Both the position numbers and the translations under genes were made by a program. From Mobula hypostoma (Eukaryota), in assembly GCF_963921235.1 (NCBI RefSeq), contig NC_086097.1, positions 149,918,001 through 149,982,000 on the forward strand: a stretch of 64,000 nt of DNA, read 5' to 3'. The notes beneath the pieces were generated by a model. The model was given only the letters and a program-made list of their open reading frames with translations, was not told where the DNA came from and searched no databases. This document shows, piece after piece, positions 4,575-62,666 of this stretch (its first letter is position 1; each line of letters begins with the position of its first letter).

Positions 4575-5124
4575 CTGCAAGTCAGAGAAATTAGAATATT
4601 CTACAATAGTCCCATTAGCAAATTGCTTGCTTCCCATCTCCACTGACATTGTTACAACCTACTACCCTCCACAACTAATCATACCCCTTGCCAACAACAA
4701 ACTGAGGATAATCCTTCCACTTAACCAACTCTAGACGCAGAGCTTCTACTCACTCTTGGTAATTTGCCCAACTGCCTTCTTAAACAGCTACAGCAGTAGA
4801 CAGGGTTTTGAGGTTTTCAAATTAAAGACACATTCAATTGTACTGGTCTCTTTGCATCTAGATATGGCACTAACTACCCAGATAACATTGTTTTAATGGA
4901 TTTTGACACAGAAGAATCAAGGTCCCAGTTCTCCCAAAAAGAAACTTGTTCAGAAATTTAAAATATGGAACATATTCAAAGTACTTCAATTTTAGCTATG
5001 TCCTGACAATCTAGGTTGTGACAAGTCATGTGACATACTTTTCATTCATCCATATTTTAAGATGGAGAAGCAAAATTGTTTCCAGATGCATTAAATGGTT
5101 AGTGGAAAGGGACATGATTGGTAA

Positions 5125-7630: not shown

Positions 7631-9223
7631 TATGTCAGAAGACAGTGATAAAAAAAATCCAATTCTGAATAAAGGGGAAGAGATATGAAGACCATATCAT
7701 GGAGGAGTAGACTGCTGAATACAAAGATAATTTTGATCGTAATTCCATACCCTTTCTCACAAAGCTACAGTTGCAAGAAAATGTTTTTTTAACCTGGTTT
7801 TCTGCATTACTCACAAAACGTGATCTAATCTTCATGCAAGTCACAATAATAGACGAACACAATCGCCTAAACTAGTAACAAACTGTACTTTTCATGTCTT
7901 TATTTAACACAATGTAATCATTCAGTGCAAGATGGGAAAAGTATGTGAATCCTTTTGTTCACTAATAGACCCTCCTATAAGCAGCAATAACCTCCACCAA
8001 ATGTTTCCTGTAGCTGCTGATCAGACTTGCACAATGGCACAGGGGAATATTAGACCATTCCTCCATACAAGACTGCTTCATTTCATAAATATTTCTGGGA
8101 TACCTTGCATTAACAGCCTTCTTTAGTTCATGCCAGAGCATCTCAATTGGGTTAAGGTCTGGAATCCAACTTGGCCATTCCAAAACACATATTTTTTTCT
8201 TTTTTAACCATTCTGTTGTTGATTTGCTCGTGTTTCAGATCGTCTTCTTGCATCATGCAACTTTTATTAATCTTCAAATGATGGACCGCCACCATGACCT
8301 TCTCATGTAAAATGTGTTGATACAAATTTTGAATTATTCTTCCCTCAACAAGCGACAGCTGCGCTGTCCAGACCCTGAGGCAGCAAAGCAGCCCCAAACC
8401 ATGACGCTCATTCCAACATGCTTCACAGTTGGGTTGAGGTTCCGGTGTTGGTGTGCAGGGCCCTTTTTCCTCAAAAAAAAAGCACTATGAATTTCTGCCA
8501 GAAGTTCAACTTTTGTCTCATCTGTACACAGAACACTGTCCCAGAAGCATTGTGGAACATCCAGGTGGTCTTTTGCAAACTTGAGACATGCATCAACTTA
8601 TTTTTTTGGAGAGCAGTGGTTTCCTCCATGCTGTCCTTCCATGAACGCCATTCTTATTCAATGTTTTTCTTATAGTGGACACATGAAGGGAGTTTAACAA
8701 GTGCTAGATATTTCTGCAAGCCTTTTGCTGTTACCCTTGGGTTGTTTTTCACCTCCTTCAGCATTGCATGTTGTGCTTTTGGTGTCATCTTTGCAGGATG
8801 CCCACTCCTAGGGACAGTAGCAACAGTATTGAGTTTCCTCCATTTGTAGACAATTTCTCATACTGTGGACTCATACTCAGGTCTTTAGAAGTGCTTGTGT
8901 AGCCTTTTCCAGCTTCAGGCATCTCTACATTCCTTCTAAGATCCTCTGAAAGTTGTTGCACATAAATGGATCTTCCTTAACAGCAGTTTCTGTCAGTAAC
9001 CTGACTGTCTTTTTTTAAAGACATAGCTCCTCTACAACCTATGCCTCCAATCTCAACTCATTGACTGGAACACCTGACTCCAAATAGCTTTTGTAGAAGG
9101 CATTACCCCAGAGCTTCACATACTTTATTGAACCTAGACTGATTGCTTAAATAGTGTACAATTGTTTGTATGTTTAACTTAGGCAGATTGTGTTTCTTTA
9201 TAATTGTGACCTAGATGAAGATC

Positions 9224-11230
9224 TAATTACAACAACTTCAGGATGAGGGTCTCTTCAGGAGCAATTATATCAAGCTGGCACAAGGTGGAGATTGGCATCA
9301 TCACAGGATGCACTATTTCAGTGACACGGTTCTCCCTAGCCACGAAGATGCTCACCAAATCAGCTGAACCAGAGTGCAGAGGGCCCAGAATGAATTCCGC
9401 TCAACGGCAACCACCTATCAGGGCATTCATGGATGACCTCACGATCACCACAAAATTAGTCCCAGGCTGCCAGTGGATTCTGCAGGGGCTCAAAAAGTTG
9501 GTGGAGTGGGCCCAGATGCGTTTCAAACCTGCCAAATCAAGATCTATGGTGCTGAGAAAAGGGAAGGTGGAGAACAAGTTCCGGTTCAGCATTGCAGCCG
9601 CAGCTATCCCAACCATCACAGAAAAGCCAGTCAAGAGCTTAGGTAAGGTTTTTGTCAGCTCTTTAAGGGACACGATATCCATTCAGGTGATCTGCACCGA
9701 GTTGGATGGCTGGCTGAAATCTGTGGACAAGTCTGGCCCACCTGGGAAGCTCAAAGCCTGTGTGTATCAGCATGGCATTCTTCCTGGAATCCTGTGGCCC
9801 CTTCTCATCTATGCAGTTCTGATCTCGACAGTTGAAACCTTAGAGAGGAGGGTTAGCAATCACCTCAGGAGATGTCAGGGGCTGCCAAAGAGCCTGAGCA
9901 GCATCGCACTCTATGGACACAACAAACTGCAACTGCCCTTCAAATCCTTGGAGGAGGAATTCAAGGTAACAAGAGCCAGAGAAGTGGTACAGTATTGGGA
10001 CTCAAGTGATCTGAAGGTGGTTAGAGCAGGGATCTAAGTAAGGAATCCAAGGCAGGAAGTGGAGGGCAGAGGAAGCTGTTCAGGAGGCAGTGGCAAGGCT
10101 ACATCACAGGGGCCTAATGGGAGTGGTCACGCAAGGCCGAGCTGGGCTAGGATTCTTTCCAACTCCCCAAATGGGCACCAGAGGGAAGGAGAGGCGCCGC
10201 CTAGTTCAGGAGGTGGTGAGTGCAGTAGTGGAGGAGATGAGAGCCTGCAAGGCGGTGGGAATGAGCAACAGGGAGCTTGGACAAGATGAGAGAATGTGGT
10301 TGAGAGGAAGGTGACCTGGGCTGAGCTTTGGAAAGTCGAACTACACCACATCCAATTTCTCATCCAGGCAGTGTATGATACGCTTCCAAGCCCACCAAAC
10401 CTGCACACATGGGCAAAGCAGAGTCATCTGTGTGCCCACTGTGCTCCAAGCGAGGAACCCTGGAGCACATCCTCAGCGGCTGCACAAGGACACTTGGTGA
10501 GGGACGGTGCCAATGGAGGCCAGATCAAGTCCTGAAAACCATCGCTGAAACCGTCAGCACAGGAGTTGAGTGGGCGAAGCTGTCCCGACCCTCCAAGCAG
10601 ACCATTGCCTTTGTCAGAGCTGAGGAGCAGCCAATACCCGCCAAAAGAACATATGCAGGCAACCTGACCTCTGTAAGGGACTGGCAGCTGTTGGTGGACC
10701 TCAAACAGCAGCTGAAGTTCCCCAATCATATCGCAGCCACCACCCTGCGACCAGACATTGTTCTTGTGTCTGAGTCTACTAAGCAAGTGTTGCCGCTGGA
10801 GCTGATAGTCCCATGGGAAGATAGCTTGGAAGAGGCCTTTGAAAGGAAGCTCTCCAAGTATGCAGGACTGGTCAGCAACTGTCAGCAGGCTGGATGGAGA
10901 GTGAGGTGTCTCCCAGTGGAGGTTGGTTGTAGGGGATTCGTAGCCCGTTCATTAGCTAGAGCCTTCAGCAATTTGGGCATCGAGGAAGAGAGGAAGAGGA
11001 GAGCCATCCACCGTATCACCGATGCGGCAGAGAAGGCCTCAAGATGTCTGTGGCTCAAAAGAGGGGAGCCATGGAGTCATAAGTAGCTAGCCATCTGGAC
11101 ACAAGCTGGGGTCTGATCAGCCCTGGCTGGGTCACCTGGAGGAGGGTGCATGATGTTGAAAGATCAGAAACACCCGATGATTCCAGGAACATCACTGAAC
11201 ATGTGTCCAGATGCATCAGTAGATGTACAC
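9224..11230 (+). mobile_element. 5'-truncated RLE non-LTR retrotransposon (HERO/NeSL-like), family A
   Basis: RT (GIITGCTIS, FMDDLT), zinc knuckle CPLC..HIL..C, R(H>P)D, RPDIVL..ELIVPWE..K..KY restriction-like endonuclease; several stops/frameshifts; flanked by AAGATC at 9218-9223 and 11231-11236. Confidence 0.92.
11092..11213 (+). ncRNA. Structured 3'-UTR RNA with permuted hammerhead-like core (degenerate copy)
   Basis: Outer stem catctggacaca/tgtgtccagatg; gggtg-CA-tgatgtt ... GAAA-caccc ... aacatca-CTGAACA. Confidence 0.6.
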
Positions 11231-13134
11231 AAGATCAGACCACATTTTATGAGTTATTAATATAGAAAACCAGGTAAATGCAAAGACTTCACAAACTTTC
11301 TTGCAACTACTGTTTAGTCTCAAACATCTATATTGGTATTTGGATTCCATGCAGCTTGGAAAATGGACTAAGAGATTTTGCAAAGAAATTTAATATGCAA
11401 GGCAAGATTAAAGTTCTCAAACCTCACCCCAATCTGCCCTTTTCCATAGAACAAGTTATGGACTTATGACAAAAGTGCTGAGTTGCAATGGTCTACCAAG
11501 AATGTGTGCTTCCATTTGAATTTTCACCCTCCCACCTCCACAAAAAGCACATGAAAGCTGAGATTCCCATCTACACCAAGAGTTTTACTGACTGTTTATG
11601 AATCTTTTTCACAAATATGTCTTGCATTAAAAAGCAAGCAGGATAGTTAAGGGTTAAGGGTTTTTAATCATTGACCACAAGTTGTGAGGAAAGGTACCAA
11701 GTCACAACAGGGAATGACATTAGGGTAACTGAACTGAGGAAGATACAATTTTGAGTTCCAGGAAAATTAAAATAGAAACCTAGGGCTCAAAAGGAATGCC
11801 AATAAGACATAATGTAAAGACTTTTACTCCTCATGTATATGAAGGCTGTCAGTAATAAAGTCAATTCAATTCAATGCCAAAATAATGTTAACTCCAAAAT
11901 ACTGCGGTATCAAGAACAAATTATAAACCCTACATGATGCAAAATATTAAGAGGCTTGAATAAAGAAACATTCTCCCCATCCATCCTCGCAATGTAATTC
12001 AGTTTTAGAAACATATTCCTCATTAAATTATCAAATTCCTTGTTGCTCATTTACAACCAGAGAAAATAACATGGGGGGCATGATTTTAAGGTGACTGGGG
12101 GAAAATATAGGGGGATTTCAGAGTTACTTTTTCAGTTTAAAAAAAAAGAGCGTTAAATGCATGGAACACACTGGCGGGGATAGCTGTAGAGACGGGTACT
12201 TTAGGGACATTAAGAGGATGTTAAAAATAGAGGACTATGTAGAAACAACTTTACTGTGCTGGAATATTCTAAGCTCTATGAAAATGAATACCAAAAGCTT
12301 TGTTTTGGATGCAAAAAGATTAATTGTGAAAAAGAAAATATCTCTGAACAGTAAACATTTTTCTCTATTGCTTAGATGCTCAAAATACATTTTATTATTA
12401 GTAGATAAATAAAACAAGTGAAACTGGCCTTTAACATTTGTAGTAAAGGCTAGAGAAAAATTTCATCCAGTGTTATTGTGATGGACATACATCATGCAGC
12501 AACATCTGCCATGTTTATAAAGGCAAGCCAGGTATAATCAGTTACAATTTTGTAAACTCTACCCCTAACTTGCTGATACTCACCTTCTGGGCTCCAATAC
12601 AAGTGCACAATTTAATATTGTAACAGAAGACAATAAGATAACTGTTCCCCTATTCTCCAGCTGTCAGGATATACAAAGATAATTGGATCAGGTGGGGCAA
12701 AGAAACTAGGCTGAATTACTCATGACTGCTGTTGAAGTTGGCAGTAAATGACACGTTCTATTGTTCAATGCCACATTGATCTTCTGTCAAAATAAAATAC
12801 AAAATTCTATAAACTCCCATGAGTATTTTTTGTGGGAAGACAGCAGTTAACACTTCAAGATGATAACAGCAACTGAGAGAATTTGAAAAGTTAAGTGTCA
12901 TTGACACAAATGTTAAACCATTCTCTTCAAAGATGCTGCCCAACCAGATACTTCCAGTGCTGTTTTTGTGCTTGAGGTCAAACTTCCCCTGCAGATGTTC
13001 TTGCATTTCCTGCCAAAAGGGATCATGTAACGAAAAATTAGTTACTAAGATGCAAAAAGAGCACAAAATGAATGTCTACAACTTTCACCAGCAAATGTAC
13101 CAGTTCACCAGCTTCAGCTAAATTGAAGCCCAGA

Positions 13135-28659: not shown

Positions 28660-30278
28660 AACTCAGGAAGCTGAATAGGCTAAAGGTCGATAAATCTCCT
28701 AGACCAGATGGAATGCACCCTCGTGTTCTGAAGGAAGTAGCTGTGGAGATTGCGGAGGCATTAGCGATGATCTTTCAAAAGTCGATAGATTCTGGCATGG
28801 TTCCGGAAGACTGGAAGATTGCAAATGTCACTCCGCTATTTAAGAAGGGGGCAAGGAAGCAAAAAGGAAATTATAGACCCGTTAGCTTGACGTCGGTGGT
28901 TGGGAAGTTGTTGGAGTCGATTGTCAAGGATGAGGTTACAGAGTACCTGGAGGCATATGACAAGATAGACAGAACTCAGCATGGATTTCTTAAAGGAAAA
29001 TCCTGCCTGACAAACCTATTACAATTTTTTTGAGGAAATTACCAGTAGGCTAGACAAGGGAGATGCAGTGGATGTTGTATATTTGGATTTTCAGAAGGCC
29101 TTTGACAAGGTGCCACACATGAGGCTGCTTAACAAGATAAGAGCCCATGGAATTACAGGAAAGTTACATACGTGGATAGAGCGTTGGCTGATTGGCAGGA
29201 AACAGAGAGTGGGAATAAAGGGATCCTATTCTGGTTGGCTGCCGGTTACCAGTGGTTTTCCACAGGGATCAGTGCTGGGGCCGCTTCTTTTTACATTGTA
29301 CATCAACGATTTGGATTATGGAATAGATGGCTTTGTGGCTAAGTTTGCTGACGATACGAAGATAGATGGAGGGGCTGGTAGTGCTGAGGAAACGGAGAGT
29401 CTGCAGAGAGACTTGGATAGATTGGAAGAATGGGCAGAGAAGTGGCAAATGAAGTACAATGTTGGAAAGTGTATGGTTATGCACTTTGGCAGAAAAAATA
29501 AACGGGCAGACTATTATTTAAATGGGGAAAGAATTCAAAGTTCTGAGATGCAACGGGACTTGGGAGTCCTCGTACAGGATTCCCTTAAAGTTAACCTCCA
29601 GGTTGAGTCGGTAGTGAAGAAGGCGAATGCAATGTTGGCATTCATTTCTAGAGGAATAGAGTATAAGAACAGGGATGTGATGTTGAGGCTCTATAAGGCG
29701 CTGGTGAGACCTCACTTGGAGTACTGTGGGCAGTTTTGGTCTCCTTATTTAAGAAAGGATGTGCTGACGTTGGAGAGGGTACAGAGAAGATTCACTAGAA
29801 TGATTCCGGGAATGAGAGGGTTAACATATGAGGAACGTTTGTCCGCTCTTGGACTGTATTCCTTGGAGTTTAGAAGAATGAGGGGAGACCTCATAGAAAC
29901 ATTTCGAATGTTAAAAGGCATGGACAGAGTGGATGTGGCAAAGTTGTTTCCCATGATGGGGGAGTCTAGTACGAGAAGGCATGACTTCAGGATTGAAGGG
30001 CGCCCTTTCAGAACAGAAATACGAAAAAATTTTTTTAGTCAGAGGGTGGTGAATCTATGGAATTTGTTGCCATGGGCAGCATTAGAGGCCAAGTCATTGG
30101 GTGTATTTAAGGCAGAGATTGATAGGTATCTGAGTAGCCAGGGCATCAAAGGTTATGGTGAGAAGGCGGGGCAGTGGGACTAAATAGGATAAAATGAATC
30201 AGCTCATGATAAAATGGCGGAGCAGACTCGATGGGCCAAATGGCCTACTTCTGCTCCTTTGTCTTATGGTCTTATGGT
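28660..30278 (+). mobile_element. Young 5'-truncated CR1 LINE (RT domain to tail)
   Basis: NYRPVSLTS, QHGF, YLDFQKAFDKV, PQGSVLGP, FADD, RPHLEYC; a single +1 T frameshift at 29025-29031; (cttatggt)2 tail. Confidence 0.97.
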
Positions 30279-51768: not shown

Positions 51769-51931
51769 ACAACAGGAATTCTGCAGATGCTGGAAATTCA
51801 AGCAACATACATCAAAGTTGCTGGTGAACACAGCAGGCCAGGCAGCATCTGTAGGAAGAGGTGCAGTCGACGTTTCAGGCCGAGACCCTTCTCGAAATGT
51901 CGACTGCACCTCTTCCTACAGATGCTGCCTG
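51769..51931. mobile_element. Young partly inverted PLE terminal repeat with 14-bp TSD
   Basis: actttgtaaagtga at 51755-51768 and 51932-51945; about 40-bp inverted arm. Confidence 0.9.
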
Positions 51932-56889: not shown

Positions 56890-57623
56890 TTTTTTTAGAT
56901 TAAGAGGACACGCAGTCCTCTTTCATTGTCATTTAGTAATGCATGCATTAGGAAATGATACAATGTTTCTCCAGAATGATATCACAGAAATACATGACAA
57001 ACCGACTGAAAAACTGACAAAAACTACATAATTATAACATATCAAAGTTGCTGGTAAACGCAGCAGGCCAGGCAGCATCTATTGGAAGAGTTTCTGTCGA
57101 CGTTTCAGGCCGAGACCCTTCTAACATATAGTTACAACAGTGCAAAGCAATACCATAATTTGATAAAGAACAGACCATGGCACAGTAAAAAGTCTCAAAG
57201 CCTCTCCAAAGTCCCATCATCTCACACAGACGGTGAACCTCCAGCGCCGCAAACTTGCCGATGCAGCATACTGGAAGCATCTGACCACAGTCCGACTCCG
57301 AGTCCGTCCGAAAACTTCGAGCCTCTGACCAGCTATCCGACACTGAGCACTGAGCACCATCTCTGCCGAGCGCTTCGACCCAGACTCCGGCAACAGGCAA
57401 TAGGCAAAGTCGAGGATTTGGGGCCTTCCCCTCCGGAGATTCTTGATCGCACAGTAGCAGTGGCAGCGAAGTGGGTATTTCAGAAGTTTCTCCAGGTGTT
57501 CCTCCGAGCTTCTCACGTCTGTCTCCATTAAATCAGGATTGTGCACGGCCCCTAGTTAACACATTACGATATCATTCGGAACGGTCGCACGCACTGCGTT
57601 GCGCTGCCATCTTCTCCTCCCTC
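56890..57623 (-). mobile_element. Non-autonomous retroelement with CpG-rich head (ggaggagaagatggcagcg) and LINE-type tail; carries a PLE insert at 57043-57121
   Basis: CpG-rich body, tail hairpin gaggactgcgtgtcctc; PLE insert flanked by taacatat (57035-57042, 57122-57129). Confidence 0.6.
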
Positions 57624-57689: not shown

Positions 57690-57878
57690 GTTGTCATCAT
57701 CTGAACCCTTAGTGCCTAGGTGGCACATGGGGCCTCCACAAGGGCCTTCCATTTCCGCCGGTCTTTCTCTCTGCTGCTCGCTGTTACCCAGTTCATGCCT
57801 ACTTCTTTCAGTTCTACTTCCACAGATCTTCACCACGTCATTTTGGGCCTGCCCCTACTTCGCTTTCCCTGTGGGGTC
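57690..57878 (-). mobile_element. RTE-clade LINE extreme 3' end
   Basis: Minus translation TPQGKRSRGRPKMTW.RSVEVELKEVGMNW..DRRKWKALVEAPCAT. Confidence 0.8.
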
Positions 57879-57899
57879 TGAAACGATAGCACGCCAAAA

Positions 57900-60800
57900 T
57901 TTGGAAAAAATTAGGAGTGGTAATCTGGATCCTTCTGTTAAATTTGAGCCCTTGTGGGCAGCACTCGCAAGAGGGCACCACTCAAGCTACAACTGAATAC
58001 GAAGAACAATAACCCCAGAGTCTCCCGAGAGAGGGGGAGGATGAGAGACTCAACAGGATTGTCATACCGGCAATGGCCAGGACAGGAAACACGACTACGA
58101 GGAAGCTAAAGCAAACAACACTGACCGGAGAGGAATTCACAGTAAGGTGTCATTGCGGGAAAGTCTGCAAAAACATCAGAGGGCTCAAGATACACCAGAG
58201 CAAGTCTAGATGTGGATCAATGGTGACCCAAGTGCAGTGCACAGACCTAGTGTCTGGTGAGACGAAGGAGAATTCCAGCCGGGAAGCACCCCACAGAGCT
58301 GAAGATCTCTCCCCACTTGAGTCCCCTCAGCACCGAACAACAGACCTAGTGAGTTCCTCTTCTGCTACCCCAATCCATTCGTCAAGGAAAGACAGGATCA
58401 AATGGCCTAGATCATCAGACAACGTCACCTGGATGCAGTTCGATGACGATCTAGATGGTATCCTGGAAGTTGCCTTAGCAGGTCCAGTACACAGAAAGAT
58501 CGACTCACTCACAGCCATAGCGTACAATCTAGCTGAGGAACGATTTGGTCCAATGGAGCGGAGAAGCCAGCCGGAGTTACTGCGGCAACCAAATAGGAGG
58601 GAAATGGAGATTCGGTGCTTGAGAGGTGAATTAAAGATGCTCAACAAGAGGTTTAAAACCAGCTCACCGGCTGAAAAAGAAGGTATTAAGGACTTAACCA
58701 GTAAGCTGCGGGAAAAGCTGTGCAAACTCTGGAAGGCGAAACATCTACAACGGCAAAGAAGGAAGAAAGAGAAGAGGCGAGCGCAGTTTGTGAGAAATCC
58801 ATTCAGCTTCACCAGGACTCTTCTCGGCCAACAAAAATCTGGTATACTATCCAGCTTGAAGCCAGAGGTAGAGGAGTTCCTGCGGGAGGCACACAGTGAC
58901 CCACGGAGGGGTCAGGGACTAGGAACCAATCGGGCTGTGCGTAGACTGGAAAATCCGGCAGAATGTGAAGGAGCCTACACGGCAGGAAATCCAGGACATC
59001 ATCCGGAAAGCTAAAGCATCAGCTGCCCCAGCCCCAAGCAGCATACCTTATAAGGTGTATAAGAAATGCCCAAAACATCTTCGGAGGCTGTGGAAGGTCA
59101 TGAGAAAGATCTGGGCCAAAGGTACTATTCCATCAAGTTGGAAATTGGCAGAGGGATGCTTTATTCCAAAGGAAGAGGTTTCTTCCACAATTGCCCAGTT
59201 TAGGACAATTTCTGTCCTGGATGTGGAATGTAAGATTTTCTTTTCTGTGCTTGCAAGAAGGCTGACTTCTTACATGATGCAGAACCGCTATATCAACACA
59301 TCCATCCAGAAAGGCGGTATTCCAGGCTTTTCAGGGTGTCTGGAACATTAGCCTTCTGATCTGTGAGGCCAAGCAGAAAAAAGGCGACCTAACAGTTGCC
59401 TGGTTAGACCTCGTGAACGCCTACGTGTCTATTCCACATGACCTCATCCTAGAAAGACTCGACCACTACTACATCCCAGTGACTATTCGAGACATGATCA
59501 CCAGCTACCCAGGAGGATTCAAACTCAGATTTACATCAACCCATTTCACAACTAGTTGGCAGGACCTCCAGAAGGGAATTCCAACAGGGTGCACCATCTC
59601 CCCCATCCTATTTATTATGAGAACGAACCTCCTATTATCAGCAGCAGAAGATGTAACCCGCAGCCCGACGCTGGAGTCGGGCATTGTTCAGCCAGCTCTA
59701 CGAGGGTTCATGGACGACATCACTATAACAACTGTGTCACATGTCCAAGCAAGATGGGTATTGGAAACCCTGGGTAATGTAGCCACTTGGGTGAGGATGT
59801 CCTTCAAGGCCAAGAAGTCCAGGTGCATGGTGAACAGAAAGGGCAAAGTTACTAGCAAGTTTAGCCTTCAAGTTCAAGGTGAGGTCATCCCTTCCATTGA
59901 AGATAACCCAATAAAATGCTTGGGGAAGTGGTTTAATGTGTCACTGACAGATGGGGCTAATGTCACCAGTGCTGTGAAGCAGACAGACAAATGGCTGAAG
60001 AAGATCGACAAATCTGGACTTCTGGGTAAACTCAAGACCTGGCTGTACCAATAAGGCATTCTGCCCAGGCTCCTCTGGCTCTTCACACTTTATGAGTTCC
60101 CCATGACTGCCGTAGAGAGCATTGAGAGGAGAACCAACAAGCACCTGAGGAGATGGTTGGGAGTTCCCCCAAGCTTCTTTTCAGCGGACCTCTACATTCG
60201 TTCTGGGCAACTGCAGCTTCCCCTGTCATCTGTTGTGGAGGAATTCAAGGTGGCAAAATGCAGAGCCTTATTAAGCTTGAGAGATTCCAATGACGTCCTG
60301 GTAAAGCAAGCAGGTGTTACAACCAGATCTGACCGCAAGTGGGCAGCCAACGCAGCTGGGGAGGAGGCAGTGTGTTCTCTGAAGCTGCGAGATATCATCG
60401 GCAACCCCTGCGTTGGGCGGCAAGGACTCGGCTCAGTTCACTTCCAGAAGTGGGGAAACGCAAGCATAAGGAACAGGCGAGACATGATACAGGCAGAAGT
60501 ACGGATCCATGAGGAAGAGAAGCGGATGTCAAAGGCAGTGGAACAAGGGTCCCAGGGTGCCTGGTCAAAATGGGATCTGCCTAAGCACAAGATCTCATGG
60601 GCAGAGTTATGGAGACTGGAGCCCTTCCGTATTTCCTTCCTCTTGCGATCCGTGTATGACACCCTTCCTTCACCTTTACATCTGTACACATGGAGGATGA
60701 GAGAGGACCCGAACTGTAAGCTCTGTGGTCAAAAGGGGACACTGGCTCATATACTGTCCAGGTGTAAAACAGCTCTAACTCAAGGACGATATAGGTGGCG

Positions 60801-61550
60801 CCATGATAAGGTGCTTCTGGCTCTTGCTGACACACTAGAGCGGGAGAAATGCAAGAAGAGGACGACTGGCACAGATTTGAGGAAAGCCATCACCTTCATC
60901 AAAGAGGGAGCGAGGCTTTTCGTAACCAAACAACCAAAGCCCAATCTGCTGCTAATGGCCACGCCCTGGGAGATGAGTGTTGATGTGGGAAGGAGGTTGC
61001 AGTTCCCGGACGTGGTGCACACAACCCTACGCCTGGACATTGTACTGTGGTCAACGGAAGACAAGAAAATAATTCTGGTTGAGTTGACTGTGCTGTGGGA
61101 GGAGGGATGGGAAGAGGCCCACGAGAGAAAGGCCTTGAAATACCAGCCCTTTGTGCAGGAGTGTGAAGACAAGGGATGGCAGGCATGGTTGTTCCCTGTG
61201 GAGATCGGCTGCAGAGGTTTCCCAGCCAAATCAGCATGGCGGTTGTTGTCAGATCTGGGCCTGGATGAAAGGAGCAAAAAACAAGCAGCTCGTAGGATGG
61301 GGGAAGAGGCAGAATGAGCCTCTTCTTGGATTTGGAGTAGGCGAGAGGAGGGGAGCTGGAAGCCAGGAGCAGATGGGCAGTGATTTGGCCTCCACTGCCG
61401 GCCCACCAACTGGAGAGTGTCGTGGTTAAGGGTCGAAACACTCTGTGAAGGTTGTGAACCACCTGATGACATCTGCTCCTGGCTGAAGGCTACGGTTACC
61501 TTATAAAGTAACTGGAGAATGCACCCAAACGGGTGTATATAACAAGAAGA
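57900..61550 (+). mobile_element. Near full-length RLE non-LTR retrotransposon (HERO/NeSL-like), family B
   Basis: Single disrupted ORF 58073-61383: N-terminal zinc finger CHCGKVCKNIRGLKIHQSKSRC, FRTISVLDVE, IQKGG, WLDL.NAY, GIPTGCTISP, FMDD, CKLC..HIL..C, RHD, R(P>L)DIVL..ELTV.WE..K..KY. Confidence 0.95.
61361..61484 (+). ncRNA. Candidate non-circularly permuted hammerhead-like ribozyme in the HERO-like 3' UTR
   Basis: agagtg-TC-gtggtt-aa-gggtc-GAAA-cactct...aaccac-CTGATGA inside a 15-bp outer stem agccaggagcagatg/catctgctcctggct. Confidence 0.7.
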
Positions 61551-61689: not shown

Positions 61690-62666
61690 AAACAACAGGA
61701 ATTCCGCAGATGCTGGAATTTCAAGCAACATACATCAAAGTTGCTGGTGAACGCAGCAGGCCAAGCAGCATCTATAGGAAGAGGCGCAGTCGACGTTTCC
61801 GGCCGAGACCCTTCGTCAGGACTAACTGAAGGAAGAGTGAGTAAGGGATTTGAAAGCTGGAGGGGGAGGGGGAGATGCAAAATGATAGGAGAAGACAGGA
61901 GGGGGAGGGATAGAGCCGAGAGCTGGACAGGTGATAGGCAAAAGGGGATACGAGAGGATCATGGGACAGGAGGCCTAGGGAGAAAGACGGGGGGGGGGTG
62001 ACCCAGAGGATGGGCAAGAGGTATATTCAGAGGGACAGAGGGAGAAAAAGGAGAGTGAGAGAAAGAATGCGTGCATAAAAATGAGTAACAGCTGGGGTAC
62101 GAGGGGGAGGTGGGGCCTAGCGGAAGTTAGAGAAGTCAATGTTCAGGCCATCAGGTTGGAGGCTACCCAGACGGAATATAAGGTGTTGTTCCTCCAACCT
62201 GAGTGTGGCTTCATCTTTACAGTAGAGGAGGCCGTGGATAGACATGTCAGAATGGGAATGGGATGTGGAATTAAAATGTGTGGCCACTGGGAGATCCTGC
62301 TTTCTCTGGCGGACAGAACGTAGATGTTCAGCAAAGCGGTCTCCCAGTCTGCGTCGGGTCTCACCAATACGTAGGCTTATAGTAGATATCAGTGGATAAG
62401 CTGTCTCCAGAGACAGAGACAGAAAGATCTAGAAAGGGGAGGGAGGTGTCGGAAATAGACCAGGTAAACTTGAGGGCAGGGTGAAAGTTGGAGGCAAAGT
62501 TAATAAAGTCAACGAGTTCTGCATGCGTGCAGGAAGCAGCGCCAATGCAGTCGTCGATATAGCGAAGGAAAAGTGGGGGACAGATACCAGAATAGGCACG
62601 GAACATAGATTGTTCCACAAACCCAACAAAAAGGCAGGCATAGCTAGGACCCATACGGGTGCCCAC
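61690..62666 (-). mobile_element. Young Penelope-like element, 5'-truncated and internally deleted
   Basis: MGTRMGPSYACLFVG..RYIDD..FLD..YYKPT fused near 62370 to GIY-YIG IGETRRRLGDRFAEHLRSV; terminal repeat to 61690. Confidence 0.92.
61788..61823 (-). ncRNA. Minimal type I hammerhead ribozyme of the PLE terminus
   Basis: Minus: AGUC-CUGACGA-AGGGUCUCGGCCG-GAAA-CG-UC-GACU; palindromic ACGU in place of stem III. Confidence 0.8.

Follow-up and report, generated by a model that had tools for sequence, protein, structure and literature searches.

A hammerhead-like fold interrupted by a predicted four-way junction in the 3' UTR of a LINE clade: a candidate self-cleaving ribozyme

Results

Two LINE copies in the analysed locus

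We analysed a 64,000-nucleotide stretch of the Mobula hypostoma genome (RefSeq assembly GCF_963921235.1, contig NC_086097.1, positions 149,918,001 to 149,982,000), here called the window, whose positions are used throughout. It contains a truncated LINE, copy A, inserted within the right end of a DNA-transposon remnant that it interrupts, and a second LINE of another family, copy B:

7768..11308, no strand assigned: host DNA-transposon remnant with long inverted ends (about 200 bases), delimited by inverted repeats I1-I3 and I8
9218..9223, + strand: left target-site duplication AAGATC, from the sequence
9219-10037: reverse transcriptase (RT) remnant of copy A, matching the RVT_1 profile at E 2e-4, under the cut-off
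9224..11230, + strand: copy A, a 5'-truncated RLE-type LINE running from the RT remnant to the 3' tail, with ends set by the target-site duplication
10379..11086, + strand: C-terminal open frame of copy A, with a zinc knuckle (CCHC) and a restriction-like endonuclease
11231..11236, + strand: right target-site duplication AAGATC, from the sequence
about 57950-61540, + strand: copy B element, with ORF pieces at 58013-61317

In the contigs of four sequencing runs, loose contig ends before 11231 agree with the sequence left of 9218-9223. The host remnant is one that we take to be Tc1-like. The ORF of copy A is broken into pieces, and its C-terminal frame stops 5 nt upstream of a fold at 11092-11213, which forms the 3' UTR of this decayed copy; a 17-nt tail then ends the element at 11230. 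We found 191 homologues for the C-terminal frame, the named ones being from fishes and lancelets (Branchiostoma), and its profile weakly matches the R2 protein structures 9nl3 and 9dou (E 2e-4).

Both copies carry RT, C-terminal zinc knuckle and restriction-like endonuclease in one ORF, a trait of the HERO clade, and the hosts of the named homologues (fishes, Branchiostoma) and the insertion of copy A in a transposon end agree with this placement. We presume, with the earlier note, that copies A and B are HERO-like elements, a label that fits their domain layout and host range. The available text of two papers (PMC9004415, PMC4640811) gives fish, lancelet and sea urchin as hosts of the clade and states that many of its families are without target specificity; the features of our elements fit this description, and the name is offered as a lead.

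Other repeats were seen in the window. A weak RT-like remnant at 29044-29655 has 24% identity to copy B, and a short dispersed repeat is present in three copies (51810-51902, about 57040-57130 and 61735-61818). On the minus strand, a fragment at about 57690-57880 resembles the 3' end of another LINE type, presumably RTE-like, and adjoins the 5' end of copy B.

A six-helix fold at the end of both copies

The fold is made up of the following parts, numbered as in hammerhead ribozymes:

11092..11103, + strand: outer stem a, 5' strand, pairing with 11202-11213 (12/12 paired)
11104..11128, + strand: hairpin b, stem 11104-11/11121-28 (8/8 paired), abutting stem a and stem II
11114-11119, + strand: palindrome TGATCA in the loop of hairpin b
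11129..11133, + strand: 10.x strand of stem II, GGGTC, with G10.1 at 11129, pairing with 11162-66 and placed 5' of the cut site
11135..11140, + strand: interaction helix, 5' strand CCTGGA, also the NC helix of the kink-turn, pairing with TCCAGG at 11182-11187 (6/6)
11142..11143, + strand: GA of the kink-turn, unbulged strand
11144..11150, + strand: 16.x strand of stem III, 11144-48 pairing with 11171-75 (5/5), with 16.1 at 11149 and H17 at 11150
3' of 11150, + strand: predicted cut, by analogy only
11151..11157, + strand: 1.x strand of stem I, pairing with 11188-11194 (7/7)
11162..11175, + strand: block G, comprising the 11.x strand of stem II (GATCA; family GACCC), GAAA at 11167-70 and the 15.x strand of stem III
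11176..11180, + strand: 3-nt kink-turn bulge GAT (11176-78) followed by GA (11179-80)
11182..11201, + strand: interaction helix 3' strand, 2.x strand of stem I, and CUGANGA
11202..11230, + strand: outer stem a, 3' strand (11202-13), and the 17-nt tail without poly(A)
61362..61483, + strand: fold of copy B at the end of this near full-length LINE, core intact (GUC, CUGAUGA), with H17 at 61421

The earlier note had placed these helices in 11092-11213 from the sequence alone, and all six lie where it put them; the partial complementarity that it saw between GGGTC (11129-33) and GATCA (11162-66) amounts to 4/5 pairs. Every base is used at most once by the six helices. When nested folding was compared with shuffled sequences, copy A reached z = -2.85 (2/200 shuffles equally good) and the segment 61355-61495 of copy B z = -3.81 (0/200). 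The mean probabilities of stems I and II in nested ensembles are 0.01 and 0.27, values which, coming from a program without pseudoknot folding, show only the pseudoknot relation of these stems to a, b and III.

Copies A and B share 37% identity over the C-terminal part of the protein and 60% over the core of the motif. A descriptor scan of both window strands at a threshold of 42 returned copy A and copy B and no other site, and a covariance model built from copy A and 13 close relatives retrieved copy B at 56.8 bits. In several relatives (P0075, P0098, P0025) the ORF runs into the fold, so that motif letters lie within predicted protein tails; the ORF of copy B would also enter its fold (61317-61382) if the stop at 61315-17 is a later change.

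Family letters of copy A

Copy A reads CA at 11149-50, with C at 16.1 and A at H17, and CTGAACA at 11195-11201, the position of CUGANGA, with C at G8 (11200). The earlier note suspected decay and predicted what the family would read at three places, which we examined in depth-weighted contigs of four runs at 80% likeness, where depths are not copy numbers. The three DNA-type runs agreed with the prediction throughout: T at 11149 accounts for 99.9, 99.7 and 94.8% of depth and G at 11200 for 99.4, 99.9 and 97.3%, and the expected GACCC at 11162-66 agrees with C at 11164 in 99.7, 99.6 and 88.9% and C at 11166 in 95.3, 90.5 and 68.9%. Position 11150 keeps A in the same runs (C in 0.6, 1.2 and 10.9%), so that together with T at 11149 the family triplet is GUA, and the family as a whole reads GUA, GACCC-GAAA and CUGAAGA. 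Some natural hammerheads carry GUA before the cut, according to the available text of PMC1636495. In the fourth run (X16, RNA type by guess) T at 11149 makes up 36% and C at 11150 67% of depth.

Since the family letters restore U16.1, G8 and GACCC, copy A has decayed, with U16.1 changed to C, G8 to C and C11.1 to A relative to the family majority. The same changes are apparent against the nearest intact relative, L001, which has all the restored letters together in a single molecule and departs from copy A at 10/122 positions, including one compensatory pair in stem III; the fragmented ORF points the same way. In runs X1 and X3 the main subfamily reads T at 11146 (84% and 82%), which, among the rows listed, likely gives a U.C mismatch in stem III. 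Around the predicted cut (11150/51) the contigs of the four runs contained no indel at 4% or above and no joint, and none of the loose contig ends listed falls there. Copy A is probably a dead relic, and any ribozyme activity is predicted from the sequence of its family.

Spread of the fold among relatives

Protein alignment against metagenome contigs yielded 328 relatives, and the best 80 of the 328 were kept, representing 79 loci. With the two window copies these made 81 regions, of which 11 were too short and were left out, leaving 70 testable. Using a descriptor anchored on CUGANGA and GAAA (up to 1 mismatch), with registers chosen to maximise pairing, we found the fold after the ORF in 55/70 regions (53 metagenome loci and both window copies) at scores of 46-70, compared to at most 41 for 350 dinucleotide shuffles and at most 31 for 70 reverse strands. 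For further counts the 55 motifs were dereplicated to 39 representatives at 85% and 23 at 75%.

Scanning the whole loci (651,738 bases) added five loci whose motif lies further downstream or near a contig end (L002, L016, L045, L067, L076), as well as another copy in L032; six more matches at 42-46 were taken as noise. The other 21 loci comprise 13 that end too early, five with damaged copies recognised by the covariance model (L007, L012, L020, L043, L061), and three (L057, L066, L077) in which neither descriptor nor covariance model found a trace of the motif. One of these three, L066 (3824 bases), is a unit whose ends overlap by 25 bases and whose 5' UTR begins similarly, with no sign of the motif and no Rfam match.

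A search of viral contigs returned no relatives. Prokaryote genomes contained three short pieces of these LINE proteins (L080-L082), which in bacterial genome records are probably contamination by animal DNA. Against Rfam, the window matched no ribozyme family at E values up to 5, and 15 loci matched none at E values up to 2. In the papers and bioRxiv preprints searched, outside subscription journals and Repbase Reports, no title or abstract start among the matches listed describes the motif. The fold thus has a wiring for which no description was found in the papers searched or in Rfam.

The core follows the hammerhead consensus

From 5' to 3' the fold carries the site block, the GAAA block and CUGANGA, which is the S-G-C order of the non-circular type. 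CUGANGA and GAAA are each exact in 53/55 motifs, though both also served as search anchors. Among letters outside the scoring, U16.1, opposite A15.1, is present in 53/55 (the exceptions being copy A and L029, to which L012 may be added under the threshold), G16.2 in 51/55, and C11.1 in 45/55 with T in 7 more. The base at H17 is U in 21, C in 19 and A in 15 motifs and never G, and all four letters occur at N7. H17 changes 23 times on a quick tree of 60 protein rows, never to G, for which the chance is near 1 in 10,000 if all changes were equally possible to G; the absence of G17 could also stem from folding alone. The core is intact in natural copies such as L001, L005, L030, L033, L053 and copy B.

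Stems I to III covary, and G10.1-C11.1 is kept, as a hammerhead requires. In a MAFFT alignment of 14 close relatives, made independently of structure, 92% of cells pair and both sides change in 26/42 pairs, with each of the six helices contributing (8/11 pairs in outer stem a, 5/6 in the interaction helix); none of 500 shuffles of the alignment, which ignore kinship, matched this. A selected fold with differing helix sequences, which the earlier note had proposed from the two window copies, is supported and now extends to 55 motifs. Pairing of native versus swapped strands was 0.95/0.38 for stem I, 0.90/0.49 for stem II, 0.85/0.51 for stem III and 0.87/0.32 for stem a, figures biased upwards by the choice of registers that favour pairing. 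In the model-made alignment A3, divergent rows are misaligned in loops.

Two related motifs (L012:839-966 and L029:2643-2770) have GCC in place of GUH, and run X16 may carry GCC at about two thirds of depth, so that a lineage may have spread without U16.1. One hammerhead feature is missing from the fold, namely a stem II strand within 0-2 nt of A9. Judged by its sequence, the fold works like a hammerhead, and for lack of this defining feature it is not a plain member of the class.

A predicted four-way junction, a kink-turn motif and a palindromic loop

Several features go beyond what the earlier note described: the kink-turn motif, the palindromic loop, the tandems, and the strand after CUGANGA, which does not form stem II. 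As the canonical stem II partner that strand gives 4/4 pairs in only 1/39 representatives (5/39 when 0-2 extra nt are allowed), whereas the first four pairs with the upstream strand are all formed in 33/39, and the upstream strand varies in sequence together with its partner. We accordingly rejected a canonical SGC stem II (1/39 versus 33/39). The strand after A9 pairs instead to close the outer stem, and the 5' strand of this stem leads through hairpin b to G10.1, leaving A9 unlinked to G10.1 in 38/39 representatives. Since block C is interrupted, we filed the fold as SGC-like and not as an SGC member.

The pairing describes a flush four-way junction at the A9-G10.1 step: in 28/39 representatives hairpin b, judged by its first three pairs, is flush at both crossings, compared to 0-3/39 when one side was shifted. 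G occupies position 10.1 in 27 of these 28 (G-C in 23, G-U in 3), and the first base after CUGANGA is U in 24, C in 22, G in 6 and A in 3 of the 55 motifs. Flush helix-helix contact of this kind, with no unpaired bases, is also seen at the four-way junction of the hairpin ribozyme, a likeness that is architectural only.

Stems I and II are separated by a linker of 1-8 nt (39 representatives), and their far ends are joined by the interaction helix, which forms at least 5 pairs in 64% of native compared to 12% of swapped combinations. This helix is separated from stem III by a 3-nt bulge, after which come G.A and A.G pairs, a pattern found in 42/55, 28/39 and 14/23 motifs depending on the level of dereplication; other bulge lengths gave 0-13, and L3 is U in 21/28. 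The standard kink-turn likewise consists of a 3-nt bulge and then G.A and A.G pairs between the C and NC helices, bends RNA to about 50 degrees, and is a protein-binding site (PMC4316175). By sequence pattern, then, this is a kink-turn motif at stem III, and we infer that it resolves the geometric problem flagged by Eckert et al., in which the interaction helix lies far from the end of stem III.

Well-formed hairpins b are present in 32/39 representatives, and 23 of these 32 have a central palindrome of at least 6 letters (shuffle mean 4.4, maximum 12). The palindromes are TGATCA in 15, TGGCCA in 4, GACGTC in 3 and AGTACT in 1, so that there are only about four independent states, and several families have none. 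Self-duplex energies of the loops range from -4.8 to -9.1 kcal/mol, which offers a lead towards a kissing loop. Retroviral dimer initiation loops are also built around a self-complementary 6-nt sequence, the likeness again being one of architecture only.

Tandems, tails and the 5' UTR

Among 46 motifs with enough flanking sequence, 11 have the 5' UTR of a next element within 200 nt downstream and 35 do not; 8 of the 11 were seeds of the 5' UTR profile. Conversely, of seven 5' UTR starts that precede an ORF, six come after the tail of an element. Several contigs self-repeat at 3.6-3.8 kb, and collapsed assemblies favour such arrays; both window copies are solo. Tails lack poly(A), with an A8 run in 0/47 and AATAAA in 2/47.

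The stretch CCAGTGAC, which follows many motifs, was considered as a second 3' element and rejected, since it is where the 5' UTR of the following copy begins. This conserved start (L003:115-219, L026:153-253, L032:1151-1251) seems to hold a short hairpin between conserved flanks, and the region may act as a promoter or form another structured RNA. L032 has a head-to-tail tandem of two families with 70% likeness (966-1088 and 4690-4810), both with TGGCCA loops, a single case. The contig of L010 (1-90) starts at position 1.2, one base past 1.1, of an upstream motif copy, again a single and perhaps arbitrary end.

The predicted cut is located some 80 nt into the copied RNA, and in the contigs of the four runs copies keep both sides of it without visible scars.

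Discussion

Relation to known ribozymes

The fold can be set beside several described systems, as far as the available text of the papers cited here goes. Type-SGC/CSG hammerheads (Eckert, Friedrich, Weinberg and Weinberg 2023, PMC10085705) share its S-G-C order, short I-II linker, interaction helix and full core consensus. The LINE fold differs from them in that block C is split, with the 10.x strand 5' of the cut site and A9 leading into a four-way junction; in closing all three block-to-block links and placing a kink-turn motif at stem III; and in residing in animal DNA, whereas the part of that paper available reports none in genomes of known organisms bar one bacterial GCS candidate. A word search of its supplement gave no match for Danio, kink or junction. 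The CChMVd (+) hammerhead, in which an extra A10 stands between A9 and G10.1 and activity is kept (PMC3705267, PMC1636495), is altered at the same backbone step, but by one inserted base, compared to two helices and both chain ends in the LINE fold.

Among retroelements, R2 is likewise an RLE-type LINE, with a structured 3' end and a ribozyme that releases the element from longer transcripts, as the LINE fold may do (5' HDV-like ribozyme and 3' UTR; PMC7650587, PMC11194090, available text); its ribozyme is of another class and at the opposite end, and its cut marks the element edge, whereas that of the LINE fold would be internal by about 80 nt. Retrozymes and Penelope-like elements (bioRxiv 10.64898/2026.07.22.740005, PMC4209133, PMC4918200, available text) also carry hammerheads in tandem retroelement units, yielding unit-length and circular RNA. 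Unlike the LINE fold, these are type I or III hammerheads of the classical, circularly permuted kind and belong to elements that are non-autonomous or Penelope; the available text of the bioRxiv preprint has no match for HERO, SGC or RLE.

A candidate ribozyme and what it may do

Our preferred reading, which we hold at about even chances, is that in this LINE clade the 3' UTR forms a self-cleaving hammerhead-type ribozyme of undescribed wiring, copy A being a dead relic of it. That the fold cleaves in some intact form appears to us probable on the grounds of its sequence, and a role in unit-length processing could go either way. The most elaborate version is put forward tentatively, as possible rather than expected: an autonomous LINE clade would carry a hammerhead with a four-way junction in its catalytic core as the way in and out for the chain, a kink-turn that holds it and a kissing loop that dimerises it, and the clade would retrotranspose from self-cut, unit-length nicked or circular RNA, with tandem arrays in the life cycle.

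In our preferred reading, stem II would stack on the core through the unbroken C11.1-G12 strand, the two extra helices would stack on each other and point away, and the bend of the kink-turn would return the interaction helix beside stems I and II. Element transcripts would be cut 3' of H17, and in head-to-tail arrays two cuts would release a unit-length RNA with its ends paired via four helices, as a nicked or re-ligated circle. RT would start at the tail and cross the cut site by re-ligation or by a template jump, which would explain how copies keep both halves; as the halves would be held by stems a and II, stem III and the interaction helix, either re-ligation or an R2-like jump could bridge the site. 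The palindromic loop would probably dimerise two RNAs, favouring the end-to-end jumps that make tandems. The R2 RT does jump templates (PMC11194090, available text), and template jumping without a ribozyme could also yield tandems.

Speaking against cleavage are the broken A9-G10.1 link, the position of the cut site inside the template, the possible GCC subfamily and the likely U.C mismatch in stem III of the main subfamily in X1 and X3. On the first, known hammerheads have at most 1-2 bases between CUGANGA and the stems according to the available text of Eckert et al. (PMC10085705). In CChMVd an extra base at the A9-G10.1 step is tolerated, and insertion of C or G lowers trans-cleavage (PMC3705267, available text). 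As a scale for rates, natural SGC ribozymes cleave at 0.007-0.19 per min (PMC10085705, available text).

Alternatively, a hammerhead-derived fold which no longer cuts may serve as a docking site for the RT-endonuclease, like the structured 3' UTR of R2, a reading we regard as somewhat unlikely. The fold lies at the 3' end, the part of the template to which RLE proteins bind; A9 is almost always unlinked to G10.1, copies keep both sides of the site unscarred, L012 and L029 read GCC, and kink-turns bind proteins. Against this reading stand the pattern of a catalytic core, with H17 free among A, C and U and never G over 23 changes, N7 free, and G10.1-C11.1 kept, and helices without conflict (no shared base) in which stems I and II covary like nested ones; docking and cutting can coexist.

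We consider it unlikely that the fold is instead an active but gated ribozyme working on single copies, switched by a kink-turn protein, junction stacking or loop dimerisation, whose cut strips the poly(A) end of read-through transcripts and thereby limits expression or shifts the RNA from translation to integration. Such gating is consistent with the conservation of three candidate switch parts, with tails devoid of poly(A), with the 35/46 motifs that have no next element within 200 nt and with the solo state of both window copies, but it leaves unexplained why 6/7 recognisable full 5' ends follow the tail of another element. Chance pairing in a decayed repeat, to which one might ascribe the three core or near-core defects of copy A and the choice of registers that maximise pairing, is very improbable and was rejected on the shuffle and reverse-strand scores and the MAFFT covariation, with which the swap controls and the core-restoring family letters agree.

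Returning to the self-cleaving ribozyme that we favour, standard descriptors and Rfam miss the fold, so that many copies may be uncounted. The fold also raises the question of how a LINE manages to copy a template that carries a cut site about 80 nt from the 3' end. Should the fold not cleave, it would be a ribozyme fold reused for protein binding or dimerisation. If it does cleave, hammerhead blocks would be interruptible, against the usual assumption, the A9-G10.1 step would be a place where whole domains can be attached, useful for the design of switches, and animal genomes would contain a hammerhead that is not circularly permuted.
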